Positions 178 through 4,921 of a DNA stretch of 64,000 bases are shown here, in pieces. The notes beneath the pieces are model-generated. The model searched no databases and was not told where the DNA came from. It saw only the letters and a list, made by a program, of their open reading frames with translations. Source of the DNA: Sphingopyxis sp. (lineage in GTDB: Bacteria; Pseudomonadota; Alphaproteobacteria; Sphingomonadales; Sphingomonadaceae); the NCBI RefSeq assembly GCF_041916015.1, contig NZ_JAYSAH010000019.1, positions 353 through 64,352 on the forward strand, read 5' to 3'. Numbering within the stretch: the stretch's first letter is position 1; every line of letters starts with the position of its first letter. Both the position numbers and the translations under genes were made by a program.

Positions 178-954
178 ATGGCTAATGAACCTCGCACCCC
201 ACGGCTTGCTGTCTTGATTGACGCAGATAATGCATCCTCCCGGATCGCACCGCGCCTTTTTGAAGAGATTGCCAAGATCGGTGAGGCAAGTGTTCGCCGC
301 ATTTACGGCGATTTCTCCGGGACTAGGCTTAAATCATGGGCCGACGTTCTCGCCACGCATGCGATCAAGGCGCACCAGAACTTTGCGTACACCAGCGGCA
401 AGAATGCTTCGGATATCGCTTTGGTCATCGACGCGATGGATCTTTTGCATACCGGTCGGTTCGACGGGTTTTGCCTTGTCTCTTCCGACAGTGATTTTAC
501 CGGGCTGGCCTCGCGTATCCGTGAGCAGGGGATCGATGTCTACGGCTTCGGAGAGCAGAAAACTCCCGAGAGCTTCCGGCAAGCCTGTCGCCGTTTCATC
601 TACACCGAGAACCTACTGCCGGAGGCGCAAACGTCAGATGAACTTGGCCGACTGGATACCCGTCCGGCTAGCGTAAAGAAGTCGCCCACTGCTGCCGCAC
701 CCTTGATCCGAACTGCCATCTCACAGCTCGATGATGAAGGGGGCTGGGTGCCTCTAGGGCGGGTGGGCCAACGCCTCGCAGCGCTCGCCTCAGACTTTGA
801 CCCCCGAACTTATGGTGAAAGCAAGCTGAGCGACCTGGTCGAGAAGGCCGGCGGCTTTGACTCACGCAGAACGGAGACCGGGCATTTGCAAATCCGGGTC
901 TCTCCGTCTGGGAAGACGGGCCAACCTAAACCCCAAAAGGCAACAGCCGGATGA
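178..954 (+). CDS. NYN (LabA/DUF88, PIN-like) RNase with C-terminal OST-HTH/LOTUS domain
   Basis: Motifs LIDADN, RRIYGDF, GKNASDIALVID and SSDSDF; C-terminal GWVPLGRVG...FDPRTYGESKLSDLV is typical of OST-HTH. Confidence 0.9.
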   Translation: MANEPRTPRLAVLIDADNASSRIAPRLFEEIAKIGEASVRRIYGDFSGTRLKSWADVLATHAIKAHQNFAYTSGKNASDIALVIDAMDLLHTGRFDGFCLVSSDSDFTGLASRIREQGIDVYGFGEQKTPESFRQACRRFIYTENLLPEAQTSDELGRLDTRPASVKKSPTAAAPLIRTAISQLDDEGGWVPLGRVGQRLAALASDFDPRTYGESKLSDLVEKAGGFDSRRTETGHLQIRVSPSGKTGQPKPQKATAG

Positions 955-1007
955 AAGCCCGGCTGCCTCCTTGCGCTAACCAATACCTTTTCTGACGCCT
1001 TTGGGGC

Positions 1008-1028
1008 ATGCGACCGATAATGTCGTAC
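1008..1028. promoter_or_regulatory. Palindromic operator ATGCGAC-N7-GTCGTAC, DriD/WYL-box-like
   Basis: Perfect CGAC-N7-GTCG core ending 20 bp upstream of ATG 1049; 12/14 match to ATACGAC-N7-GTCGTAT, the Caulobacter DriD consensus as I recall it. Confidence 0.5.
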
Positions 1029-1048
1029 ATGGGTCATATCAAAGCGCG

Positions 1049-2512
1049 ATGAGCAGAAATATTCGAACAAGCACCACTGATCCGATCCAGATCCCTACAC
1101 TTCCGGCCGCATCAGGACGCATCGGCATATCCTTCTGTCCAGGAAAACAAGGGCCTGCGCTCGCTGGCTTTACCTGGAAGCGTGATCTTGCGACCGATCT
1201 AGACGCGGTGCGTGGGTGGGGGGCTGCCGCTGTCGTCTCTCTGATTGAGAAGCACGAGATGGAGCTGCTGGGGGTCGCAGACCTGGAGACTGCGGTTGCT
1301 GCGCGTGGGATGGAATGGTTTCATCTCCCAATCCCCGACGTCACCGCTCCTGGCGAGGAATTCGAGCAACGATGGCACACGGCCGGAGCCCGGCTGCGCA
1401 GTCTACTCACCGACGGGAAAAGCGTCTTTATCCATTGCCGGGGAGGGCTGGGCCGAGCCGGCACAGTGGCGGCGAGACTGCTCATCGAACTTGGCCTTGC
1501 TGACGCTAGTGGTGCAATCGCTCACGTTCGTGGCGTCAGGCCTGGCGCCATTGAGACGAAGGCACAAGAAGATCACTTGCGAGAGATCGAGCGTATCTAT
1601 GATTGCTCATATGGCTGTTTGGTTGGACTGGCGGTCGGAGATGCTGTGGGGGCGACGCTCGAGTTCAAGCCGCGCGACAGCTATGCCCACATCACGGACA
1701 TGGTCGGGGGAGGGCCATTCGGCTTGGATGCCGGGACCTGGACCGATGACACCTCCATGGCCCTTGCGCTGGGAGAAGCTCTGCTCGCCAGCGCGGCCAA
1801 GGGCTCGGCGTTTGAGCCGGGAGAAGCACAACGGCGCTTTGTCGATTGGTGGAGGAACGGCGCCTTCAGTCCCACGGGCAGTTGTTTTGATATCGGGATC
1901 GCAACCCGGCAGGCCCTTTCTCGGTTCGAGGAAACGGGCGACCCGATTGCCGGCTCGACCGATCCGTACTCAGCAGGCAACGGCTCACTAATGAGGCTCG
2001 CGCCAGTCGCGATCTGGGGGATACAGCAAGATCCCGCAGTAGTGACACGAGTAGCCCGCCTACAGAGCATGACCACGCACGCTGCAGATGCGTGCCTCGA
2101 GGCCTGTGAAGCGTATGCACTGGTCTTGCGGGCGGCTATCCTAGGTGCCGACTTTGAGGAAGCACTGGCGGTTCCCTCGGGCGAATATGGACCGGAGGTC
2201 GGTCCAATCATGGCCGGTAGCTGGCGCGGGAAAGCACGCGATCAGATTGCGAGCAGCGGATTCGTCGCGCACAGCCTCGAAGCAGCGATCTGGTCCGTGG
2301 CAAACACGACGAGCTTCGACGACGCAGTGCTGTTGGCAGCCAACCTCGGTGAGGATGCCGACACTACTGCCGCAATTGCCGGGCAGTTGGCTGGCGCAAT
2401 TTACGGCGCATCGTCGATCCGCCGATCATGGCTAGAAAAGCTGGCATGGCGCGACAAAATTGAGAATCTCGCGCGTAATCTGGCGTTCCCGGCAGTCGCG
2501 CTCTCAAACTAA
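1049..2512 (+). CDS. Fusion of a CX5R (CDKN3/dual-specificity-like) phosphatase and an ADP-ribosylglycohydrolase (ARH/DraG family)
   Basis: N-terminal HLPIPD loop and HCRGGLGR P-loop (1433-1456). C-terminal GDAVG, WTDDT (from 1739), GNGSLMR and GEDADTTAAIAG motifs. ATG 1049 preferred over TTG 1001. Confidence 0.9.
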   Translation: MSRNIRTSTTDPIQIPTLPAASGRIGISFCPGKQGPALAGFTWKRDLATDLDAVRGWGAAAVVSLIEKHEMELLGVADLETAVAARGMEWFHLPIPDVTAPGEEFEQRWHTAGARLRSLLTDGKSVFIHCRGGLGRAGTVAARLLIELGLADASGAIAHVRGVRPGAIETKAQEDHLREIERIYDCSYGCLVGLAVGDAVGATLEFKPRDSYAHITDMVGGGPFGLDAGTWTDDTSMALALGEALLASAAKGSAFEPGEAQRRFVDWWRNGAFSPTGSCFDIGIATRQALSRFEETGDPIAGSTDPYSAGNGSLMRLAPVAIWGIQQDPAVVTRVARLQSMTTHAADACLEACEAYALVLRAAILGADFEEALAVPSGEYGPEVGPIMAGSWRGKARDQIASSGFVAHSLEAAIWSVANTTSFDDAVLLAANLGEDADTTAAIAGQLAGAIYGASSIRRSWLEKLAWRDKIENLARNLAFPAVALSN

Positions 2513-2693
2513 CGTCGCGGCCGATACATGGCAGCGATCGGCGGCGTTGCTGTTCGGCCCGCATTGCTGCCCATGGGCACATAATGTGTCATGCTTGATG
2601 CCCTATCGGTGAATTAGCGGATAATGCGTCAGGTTCGACCCTTTACAGAAGGCCCCCGGCGGCGGGATCAGACGGCAGGCTTGGCCCAATTAC

Positions 2694-3818
2694 CTACAAC
2701 GGGATCTTGGTCCCAGAAATACGTGCGGGGTCCAAGCCTGCCTCCTCCGGCTGGAGGAACCGCGGTTTCGATTTGTCTGGATCAAACGAGGCGCCCGTCT
2801 TCCACATTGCCATCATGATCACAGCGAGCTTCCTTGCGACGGCAACGCGAGCCTTGAGAAATCCGATCTTTGTTGCCAGCCGGAGGCCCCAAGTACGCAA
2901 TGAACTTTCGGTTTTGATTGTGCGAAGCAGCACGGTGGCTGCCGTGATTAGGTGCGACCTGGTCAGCTTGTTTCCGTAACGGCTGATCCGGCCGCGGCGC
3001 GCGGTGGCGCCGGATTGATACAGATTGGGCGTTAGGCCGAGATAAGGCCCGACATCTTGATTGCTTCTAAAGCGGTACGGGTCTCCGACGGCGCTGTAAA
3101 ATGACAGCGCTGTAATTGTCCCAACGCCAGGAATCGTCTGAAATCTGGCGCAAACCGGGATGCTGGCGGCCATTGTGCGCATCTTTCGATCCATATCCCA
3201 GATATGAGAGCGCAGTTCTTCTCCCATCCTGACCAGGGGATCCAAATCGACGCGGATCGTCACGCCGTTGGTCCTCAAAAGCCTGAGTTGATTCGCGACT
3301 TCAGCTGCGAGCGATCCTCGCCCATGCAGGAGCTTGATACTGGCACCGTGCAATCTGAATATGGACTGGAGCAGCGCATCCGTCCTGGCTCGATGCTTTA
3401 GCAGGGTTCGACGGATGTTGATCATTATCCGGATGTCCTGGTGCTCCACCGGTTTGATGAAAACATGGGGACCGAAGGACTGCGCCAGTCGGCCAAGCTC
3501 AGCGAGACCTTTGGCATCATTCGCATCAGTCTTTTGACGTCGGATCGCCAGGAATTTGCTTGATTTGCGAACGTCGACGACTTGAACGGGAAACCCGAAT
3601 GAACGGAGATCCCGAACCATTTGAGTGCCGACACCGGCCTCGATCGTAATAGACTGGACAGGCTCAACGCCGAACCGTCGAAGGATATCTCTTATCGGAG
3701 CAGCGCGGGTCTCAGTCATTGCCTCGAAGAAAACGTGTCCTTCGACATCGACGAGGCAGACCGCAGTCTCCAAGTGGCCGGCGTCGAGGCCGACCCAGTA
3801 GCGCAGGTGCCGTGGCAT
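2694..3818 (-). CDS. IS110-family transposase/recombinase (DEDD RuvC-like domain plus Tnp serine domain)
   Basis: GLD12, IE60, KTD98ANDA (D101), TIPGVG, YLGLTPNLYQSG, ARKLAVIM; GGGAG RBS before the ATG. Confidence 0.9.
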   Translation of the reverse strand: MPRHLRYWVGLDAGHLETAVCLVDVEGHVFFEAMTETRAAPIRDILRRFGVEPVQSITIEAGVGTQMVRDLRSFGFPVQVVDVRKSSKFLAIRRQKTDANDAKGLAELGRLAQSFGPHVFIKPVEHQDIRIMINIRRTLLKHRARTDALLQSIFRLHGASIKLLHGRGSLAAEVANQLRLLRTNGVTIRVDLDPLVRMGEELRSHIWDMDRKMRTMAASIPVCARFQTIPGVGTITALSFYSAVGDPYRFRSNQDVGPYLGLTPNLYQSGATARRGRISRYGNKLTRSHLITAATVLLRTIKTESSLRTWGLRLATKIGFLKARVAVARKLAVIMMAMWKTGASFDPDKSKPRFLQPEEAGLDPARISGTKIPL

Positions 3819-3937
3819 TGTGCTCCCGTACGACGTTTGTTTCTTTCGCTTGCCCTACTGACCTTGTCGGGGCTGTCCGACTAGGATTCGTCCTCCGGCA
3901 TGTGATAGTGAGGTAGGAAATCGAAGGAGATGATAGG

Positions 3938-4549
3938 ATGGGGCCGCGGGAGGCGTTGGATGGCCTAATCAGCGAGCGAGGAGAGACCTACGCATCAATT
4001 TCGCGCCTCCTCGGGAGAAACTCGGCATACATCCAGCAGTTCATTAAACGAGGTTCTCCAGTCCGCCTTGACCAAAGCGATATAGCGCTGCTGGCATTGC
4101 ATTTTGACGTGCCCGTAGAGAAGCTCGGTGGAAAGGAGGGGCCGACGGTCGGGCAGCGTTCGATAGTCAAAGTCCCCTTGCTGAACGGGACAGGTAACGA
4201 TTCACGCTCACAATGGCGGCTGGTTGATGCGGCTTGGCTCGGTCGGCTGTGTGATCAGCCCGCCAGTGTCGCAATCTTGCCAATCGTTGGCGAGGCGATG
4301 GAGCCCACCCTCTGCAATGGCGACGAGGTTATGATTAGCCGAGTTCGCTTCCAGGAAAGCGTGCGTGAAGGCCTTTACGCCATCCGTGGGTCTTCTGAAA
4401 TCTTCGTAAGGCGAATAGCGATCGACCCAACGAAGAACCGTCTGACCGTTCTTACTGACCACCCTGCATATCCGAGCTGGCAGGGCATCCCGCGCAAGGG
4501 CGTCGATATTGTCGGCCGGGTGATCTGGATCGGAGCTCGGGTGACCTAG
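3938..4549 (+). CDS. HTH + S24-like (LexA/CI-type) transcriptional regulator with degenerate peptidase active site
   Basis: N-terminal HTH (TYASISRLLGRNSAYIQQFIKRGSP); S24 fold motifs VGEAMEPTL, GDEVMI, GLYAI, FVRRI, IVGRVIW. Confidence 0.8.
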   Translation: MGPREALDGLISERGETYASISRLLGRNSAYIQQFIKRGSPVRLDQSDIALLALHFDVPVEKLGGKEGPTVGQRSIVKVPLLNGTGNDSRSQWRLVDAAWLGRLCDQPASVAILPIVGEAMEPTLCNGDEVMISRVRFQESVREGLYAIRGSSEIFVRRIAIDPTKNRLTVLTDHPAYPSWQGIPRKGVDIVGRVIWIGARVT

Positions 4550-4759: not shown

Positions 4760-4780
4760 GCTACCTAGAGAGCTACCTAG
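4760..4780. repeat. Tandem direct repeat GCTACCTAG x2 (4760-4768, 4772-4780), possible integrase arm-type sites
   Basis: Exact 9-bp repeats with a 12-bp period, ~65 bp from the tRNA 3' end. Confidence 0.5.

Positions 4781-4845: not shown

Positions 4846-4921
<76 letters not shown>

Follow-up and report, generated by a model that had tools for sequence, protein, structure and literature searches.

Elements of the IS1111 group combine a short left end with a long right one; they carry a seekRNA of 82-96 nt downstream of tnp and sub-terminal inverted repeats of 7-17 bp (PMC11187229). Their transposases carry a GL-P----S/TG motif (PMC11187229, Siddiquee et al. 2024), and 93% of IS1111 elements have a predicted bridge RNA in their right end (PMC11208160, Durrant et al. 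2024). In IS621 and the IS110 group, the bridge RNA has two loops and lies in the left end (8WT6 and others). RNA-guided IS110 and IS1111 recombinases are in development as genome-writing tools, and natural variants reveal how guide RNAs are built and controlled.

The IS110-family gene described here lies in a 64,000-nt stretch of DNA from Sphingopyxis sp. (hereafter the window; Table 1). The first-pass annotation had proposed that the 181-bp tract 2513-2693 is structured and encodes a guide RNA. The gene layout that it gave is correct: the tract is flanked on one side by the ARH gene, which is convergent and stops at 2512, and on the other by the IS110-family ORF, whose stop lies at 2694.

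Table 1 Features of the locus, in window coordinates.
Feature	Position	Strand	Basis or remark
Phosphatase-ADP-ribosylglycohydrolase (ARH) gene	1001-2512	+	convergent with recombinase
Flank outside the unit, ARH gene 3' region, with palindrome and CAGCGA/TTGCTG stem	2513..2580	.	shared with ARH loci
CAGCGA/TTGCTG stem	2532-2552		in ARH 3' flank
Perfect 12-bp palindrome TGCCCATGGGCA	2568-2579		in ARH 3' flank
CACAT-A-ATGTG	2578-2588		straddles unit end 2581
GGGCA...TGCCC stem	in tract	-	motif check
Right end ...GACACATTAT	2581-2590	-	divergence point of near-identical copies
Lineage-specific tail: linker, H4, H6, right end	2581..2673	-	copy divergence, lineage comparison
Predicted small hairpin H6	2588-2599	-	consensus of window, L021, type-A lineages
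Predicted hairpin H4 (GUAAAG...CAUUAU)	2621-2646	-	consensus of window, L021, type-A lineages
Predicted stem P2, 14 bp (2728-2742 with 2674-2687), encloses internal loop and P3	2674..2742	-	RNAalifold, pair counts
Internal loop 3' strand UUGUAGGUAAUU, candidate guide segment	2688..2699	-	alignment A2
Predicted hairpin P3 (UGGGA-loop-UCCCG), caps internal loop	2700..2715	-	RNAalifold, pair counts
Internal loop 5' strand CGCACGUAUUUC, candidate guide segment	2716..2727	-	alignment A2
Predicted hairpin P1 (UCCUC-CAGCCG-GAGGA)	2743..2758	-	RNAalifold consensus
IS110-family ORF, 374 aa	2694-3818	-	Pfam DEDD_Tnp_IS110 + Transposase_20 (PF01548, PF02371)
Conserved recombinase core, ~aa 1-343 of the 374-aa ORF	2790..3818	-	NF033542 coverage, relatives' length
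Divergent control region with repeated (T)TCCTA boxes	3819..3937	.	lineage alignment
HTH + S24-like regulator, 203 aa, divergent partner	3938..4549	+	Pfam Peptidase_S24
tRNA-Lys(CTT), island attachment point	4846..4921	-	ARAGORN

The recombinase matches the NCBIfam model NF033542 ("IS110 family RNA-guided transposase") with 194 bits against a cut-off of 140, and aa 8-343 of the protein align to positions 1-342 of the 343 in the model. It has the N-terminal DEDD RuvC-like domain and the C-terminal Transposase_20 domain with conserved S/T-G that define the IS110 family, and its C-terminal domain aligns to those of IS621 and ISCro4 (E ~1e-9). The IS1111-type motif GL-P----SG is present as GLTPNLYQSG at aa 261-270. 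Scans of species-representative genomes and metagenomes returned about 50 loci, whose lineages are distinguished here by protein identity: the window type (83-99%), type A (~70%), the L027-L031 and L098 types (57-59%) and L034 (50%). Many of these relatives are 349 aa long (range 347-351 aa) and cover 91% of the query; together with the motif, this length agrees with the 330-350 aa of IS1111 transposases. The window ORF is 374 aa long because it reads through a conserved block at its 3' end.

This block, identified in an alignment of the downstream regions, comprises ~100 nt of the recombinase strand (window 2668-2768) and is near-invariant across all lineages. Under translation table 11, the final 26 codons of the ORF as annotated overlap it. 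Between lineages the block is 72-92% identical, the recombinase coding core of the same lineages 61-81%, and the 98 nt after the block just 26-52%. In the 349-aa relatives the ORF ends ahead of the block, leaving it non-coding. As these relatives stop earlier and NF033542 ends at residue 343, the last 26 codons represent read-through of a non-coding element; the stop codon of the window ORF (TAG, 2694-2696) falls inside the 3' strand of the internal loop described below. To judge from these comparisons, the selective constraint on the block acts at the level of nucleic acid and not of protein. The right ends of pairwise matches cluster at +20 to +30 from the anchor, and the block closes the part common to all lineages. 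The unit-specific non-coding DNA after the conserved core amounts to ~190 nt (2581-2768) and the upstream gap is 119 bp, the figure given in the first-pass annotation: a long downstream non-coding region with a short left end, as in IS1111 elements.

A consensus fold of the block was predicted with RNAalifold from 35 sequences (alignment A2), and pairs were counted on the same set. The predicted elements are, in order, the hairpin P1, the 14-bp stem P2, a 12x12-nt internal loop and the capping hairpin P3. Three of the five pairs of P1 are changed on both sides, for example from CG to GC in L019 and L097. P2 is paired in 99.5% of cells; its pair 37-92 is UA in 23 sequences and CG in seven, and two more of its pairs show changes from GC to GU. 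P3 is 100% paired: pair 61-69 is AU in 18 sequences, GC in 10 and GU in three, pair 59-71 is GC in 18 and GU in 13, and the loop bases vary freely. Over the whole block, 98% of the cells of the 24 pairs are paired, with changes on both sides at five pairs and in 24 cells. The covariation score is 0.164, compared with 0.114 ± 0.007 in 500 shuffles, none of which attains it; it is also well above that of every version in which the partners were slid. The changes from GC to GU, seen at four pairs, fit an RNA of the recombinase strand, and the covariance model of the block scores 115 bits on this strand and 19.7 on the opposite one. The non-coding end thus holds a conserved secondary structure on the recombinase strand, as the ends that encode seekRNAs and bridge RNAs do.

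In the internal loop, the 5' strand consists of about six variable bases, which differ between lineages, followed by a conserved UUUCU. The 3' strand is near-invariant in the 35 sequences, a set in which recombinase identity falls as low as 57%. L034, with a recombinase identity of 50%, matches the block model at 31 bits. It keeps all three helices through compensating changes, with P2 rebuilt as GCGGGCCGG/CCGGCCCGC, while its loop strands, the 3' strand included, differ from those of the other lineages. Helices that are kept around loops that change are the pattern expected of programmable loops.

The block is followed by a lineage-specific tail. Its hairpin H4 has the 5' arm GUAAAG or AUAAUG and the 3' arm CAUUAU. 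Pairing in the tail hairpins reaches 85%, and a single pair is clearly compensated (UA in 10 sequences, GC in eight). This structure was derived from the very sequences used to score it and is weakly supported. Copies of the unit part ways within the tail: L017, L019 and L036, whose gene is 96% identical, have an unrelated tail from ~2650 onward, and L018 diverges from ~2598. The type-A copies in three genera (G166, G147 and G122) are 96-97% identical over 2.1-2.2 kb alone, and their flanks are unlike over 10 kb on either side. Their common stretch runs from TGGTAGCGGAGGAGGGATCCACCAA to ...GACACATTA, and its right end corresponds to window position 2581, which is where the unit ends according to this comparison.

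At the other end, the type-A left end (L133, L134, L135), TGGTAGCGGAGGAGGGATCCACCA, starts like a tRNA D-arm (TGGTAG) and ends in TCCACCA like the 3' end of tRNA-Lys; it may be a collapsed tRNA remnant. A displaced 3' half of tRNA-Lys was not found at the right end. Two further candidates were discarded: the inverted repeat 2506-2517 / 3831-3842, considered as a pair of sub-terminal repeats, has one arm outside the unit and is not conserved, and a circle-junction promoter formed from the TTGACA in the right end would find no -10 box in the left end (by eye).

We infer that the block 2668-2768 is the core of an IS1111-like guide RNA, transcribed with the recombinase mRNA and continued by a tail to 2581, and put the probability of this at roughly 0.58. 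The block is read as the seekRNA-type guide of this clade because of its IS1111 parallels, the GLTPNLYQSG motif, its size and its build of stem, loop and hairpin. As for the seekRNA or right-end bridge RNA of ISEc11, ISPa11 and ISKpn4, the putative RNA lies directly downstream of a DEDD recombinase with GL-P----SG and on the same strand, and no separate RNA promoter was detected here. Its core of ~90-100 nt is similar in size to the 82-96-nt peak of the seekRNAs; stem, internal loop and hairpin follow one another in the same way, in a non-coding region of ~190 nt that ends near the right end. The predicted fold also resembles a binding loop of the IS621 bridge RNA, in which two guide strands lie between a stem and a distal hairpin, and the proteins belong to the same family. 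It differs in that the window RNA would lie downstream of the gene and not upstream, and in that the block has one large conserved internal loop, the second half being lineage-specific and without a comparable loop.

In the mechanism that we propose, the ~190-nt non-coding region would start inside the annotated ORF near 2768, and the block would be transcribed as part of the recombinase mRNA. P1 and P2 would form a fixed scaffold for the protein. P3 would keep the internal loop open, and the two loop strands, 12 nt each, would base-pair with the DNA of the recombination site. The block would in this manner serve the recombinase as a guide RNA, like a seekRNA or one binding loop of a bridge RNA.

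Several observations do not sit easily with a guide. Unlike IS1111 elements, the window unit yielded neither sub-terminal inverted repeats nor a match between loop and target. Among six copies, no inverted repeat of at least 8 nt was found at a consistent position between the right-end region and the candidate left ends; imperfect or 7-nt repeats could escape this threshold. No consistent match of at least 8 nt, in either sense, was found between the loop strands and putative targets or element ends. A search for empty target sites, made with the right flank of the G166 copy and with ARH homologues, found none, the relatives matching inside genes only. The left-end region is not more like the RNA region than shuffles are. 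An Rfam 15 scan of 2300-4100 with E up to 10 returned two chance-level snoRNA matches and nothing else. We count the lack of 8-nt sub-terminal repeats, the lack of an Rfam 15 match and the single-copy state of the unit (see below) against the guide reading. The one signal of this kind comes from the DNA immediately outside the type-A left end, which in four of seven contexts is similar to the 5' loop strand, read in the same sense (empirical p < 0.0003, 0.004, 0.014 and 0.049). This likeness does not fit the published pairing scheme simply. A further difference from IS1111 seekRNAs also counts against a guide: one loop strand of this clade, the 3' strand, is invariant across deep lineages that occupy different contexts, which is odd for a programmable guide.

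In L101 and L118, a sequence identical to the window-type 5' loop strand, ACGTATTTCTG, is present ~27 nt to the left of an IS1-like break point. The loop of L101 itself is of type A, and the flanking copy may be the remnant of a block-like or target-like sequence.

The block could instead be a cis-acting structure without any guide role, such as an mRNA 3' end or terminator-stabiliser, a device for translational control at the stop codon, or a DNA site or right-end structure bound by the recombinase. The block is the last segment that all lineages have in common, which would suit such a structure, as would the long, GC-rich and terminator-like stem P2, loop strands that are near-invariant as in a protein-binding site, and the failure to match guide to target. 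However, P2 is not followed by a U-tract and the scan found no terminator-like site, and a simple terminator would work without a 12x12 internal loop that is conserved and capped by a hairpin. The tolerance of G-U pairs and the strand asymmetry favour RNA over a site in duplex DNA, and L034 retains the helices while its loops differ. We therefore consider a purely cis-acting role unlikely.

The putative guide RNA and its recombinase are accompanied by a regulator gene, which adjoins the recombinase gene divergently in relatives down to 50% recombinase identity. Regulator and recombinase diverge together, with regulator identities of 65, 53 and 38%. The copies that apparently have no regulator proved to be disrupted by IS1-like, IS21 or IS3 elements, with L104/L116 as the exception. 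In an alignment of the window regulator with those of L005, L021, L027, L028, L029 and L098, the catalytic Ser and Lys of the S24 domain are replaced in all seven lineages, which have G(E/D)AM (GEAM in the window) and VRR at these positions. The loss of self-cleavage is thus old and has been maintained. Three to four (T)TCCTA boxes are kept in the control region of all lineages, the rest of which is 39-67% identical, and these boxes are likely a set of operators. One box overlaps the start codon of the regulator.

The unit is single-copy in the genome of the window and in every genome examined, which gives no hint of recent intragenomic transposition. Among 401 genomes sampled from the family, nine have the block, each in one copy. 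The block pattern was not found in viral contigs, a search of plasmid DNA gave no match, and the closest IS110-family proteins encoded on plasmids do not exceed 42% identity; next to two of their genes, the covariance model of the block had no match. Together with a length of 2.2 kb, a second gene for a regulator and, in this lineage, an ORF that reads through the RNA, the single-copy state sets the unit apart from IS1111 elements. It exceeds a minimal IS in size, abuts variable DNA on its borders and has borders at alternative positions, and in this it is similar to the expanded, cargo-carrying IS110 elements (Hu et al. 2026, preprint, 10.64898/2026.08.14.744561) and the modular circles of ISPpu9 (PMC12288879); unlike in these, the extra gene is a co-diverging regulator and not plasmid-derived or resistance cargo.

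The surroundings of the unit are those of genomic islands. The 3' 40 nt of the tRNA-Lys gene recur 81-95 kb away in relatives. In G046 (C1:3007231-3099971; L129, L132), repeats of this 40-nt part bound a 92.7-kb island, with the unit at the tRNA-proximal end and a tyrosine integrase of the P4 type at the opposite one; similar tRNA-Lys islands of 81 and 95 kb are present in G201 and G204. Type-A copies border defence-type genes (Schlafen-like helicase, ARH, REase-ARP). The recombinase gene adjoins each ARH homologue that is at least 80% identical, whereas the 52-59% identical homologues from the family scan are without it.

A direct repeat, CTAGGTAGC-n3-CTAGGTAGC, lies at 4760-4780 on the minus strand, ~70 bp from the 3' end of the tRNA-Lys gene. 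It also stands beside tRNA-Lys in L099 and G243, kept in a second lineage despite different surroundings. TAGGTA occurs both in this repeat and in the invariant 3' strand of the internal loop. The repeat may be an arm site of an integrase or a target of the recombinase. The pair of NYN and ARH genes (window 178-2512) is linked to the recombinase gene in several lineages in varying arrangements, as seen when L027, L031, L096, L104 and L111 are compared with the window. In the window type, both genes are convergent with and downstream of the recombinase gene; in L031 and L104, NYN is downstream in the same orientation as the recombinase gene, and in L027, L031 and L111, ARH is on the far side of the regulator.

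We wondered whether recombinase, RNA and regulator form a domesticated module that resides in islands and works at one fixed site, as opposed to a transposing IS. Such a module might insert or excise DNA, invert it, or take up cargo where it borders a tRNA-Lys or defence island. The single copies in just nine of 401 genomes of the family would be explained, as would the pairing with a regulator down to 50% identity and the joint divergence of the two proteins, the constant position of the unit at an island edge, and the invariant 3' loop strand. The cargo differs directly after the RNA region, and in the L027 and L031 lineages NYN-ARH faces the opposite way or lies on the other side, both of which also agree with domestication. 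Yet the tRNA-Lys islands have a tyrosine integrase of the P4 type and direct repeats of 40 nt, which explain integration without a DEDD enzyme, and a 2.2-kb unit that is 96-97% identical in unrelated contexts of three genera looks like the product of autonomous movement. On balance, we find domestication quite unlikely.

The unit could alternatively represent a distinct two-gene RNA-guided module, with a one-loop guide whose 3' strand is fixed and a non-self-cleaving LexA/CI-like repressor, present as a single copy at the edge of tRNA-Lys and defence islands and acting at one fixed site. This is a tentative and rather unlikely proposal. If true, the module would move itself, or would swap, invert or capture adjacent cargo such as NYN-ARH, and it would be a regulated use of a bridge-type recombinase in the service of islands, not a selfish IS.

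What, then, of the tract 2513-2693? All four motifs reported there (Table 1) are present, but as evidence of a guide RNA the palindromes fail, since they occur at chance frequency, are not conserved and lie mostly outside the recombinase unit. Perfect 12-bp palindromes number 27 in the window, and block shuffles average 29. Compared with dinucleotide shuffles, the fold of the 181-nt tract has z = +0.88 for the recombinase strand and z = -1.06 for the + strand; it therefore folds no better than shuffled sequence. In L020, L097 and L117, CCCATGGG reads CCCACGGG and CAGCGA is changed to CATCGA with no compensation in its partner, and neither conservation nor compensated changes were found in any of the four motifs among the relatives. 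Type-A copies (70% identical) have unrelated sequence where the motifs stand, and three of the four lie past or straddle 2581, the point at which related copies diverge. As the type-A right end corresponds to 2581, segment 2513-2580, with the palindrome and the CAGCGA/TTGCTG stem, is outside the unit; its sequence is common only to loci that also carry the ARH gene. By this comparison the tract is a composite of the unit tail (2581-2693) and the ARH 3' flank (2513-2580). It is highly improbable that the whole tract is a guide RNA or a mere spacer with terminator hairpins: hairpins are present and a position between convergent genes suits terminators, but the palindromes and the fold are at the level of chance, conservation and compensation are lacking, and the covarying structure is elsewhere. 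In particular, no GC-rich hairpin with a T-run was found on either strand of the tract, which speaks against the terminators that the first-pass annotation had named as its own alternative, and no sigma-70-like promoter was found in it.

The original observation is thus real but ordinary, and its interpretation right in kind and wrong in place. Part of the tract (2581-2693) does belong to the unit, but the core of the candidate RNA is ~90 bases nearer the gene. The covariation across homologous loci that had been proposed as a check is absent from the noted motifs and present in the block. A downstream non-coding RNA is in keeping with the conserved, covarying structure after the gene core and with the IS1111 motif, while its role as a guide stays a proposal.

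Taken as a guide RNA of the IS1111 type, a class that 2581-2768 probably joins as a further candidate, the clade offers a compact, predicted one-loop RNA with well-defined helices and an unusual overlap, in which an ORF reads through the RNA gene. For annotation, the locus illustrates that the guide RNA of such elements can hide inside a called ORF, and that striking palindromes beside a gene can mislead. The consistent coupling of the recombinase to a repressor-like partner points to natural regulation of an RNA-guided recombinase.
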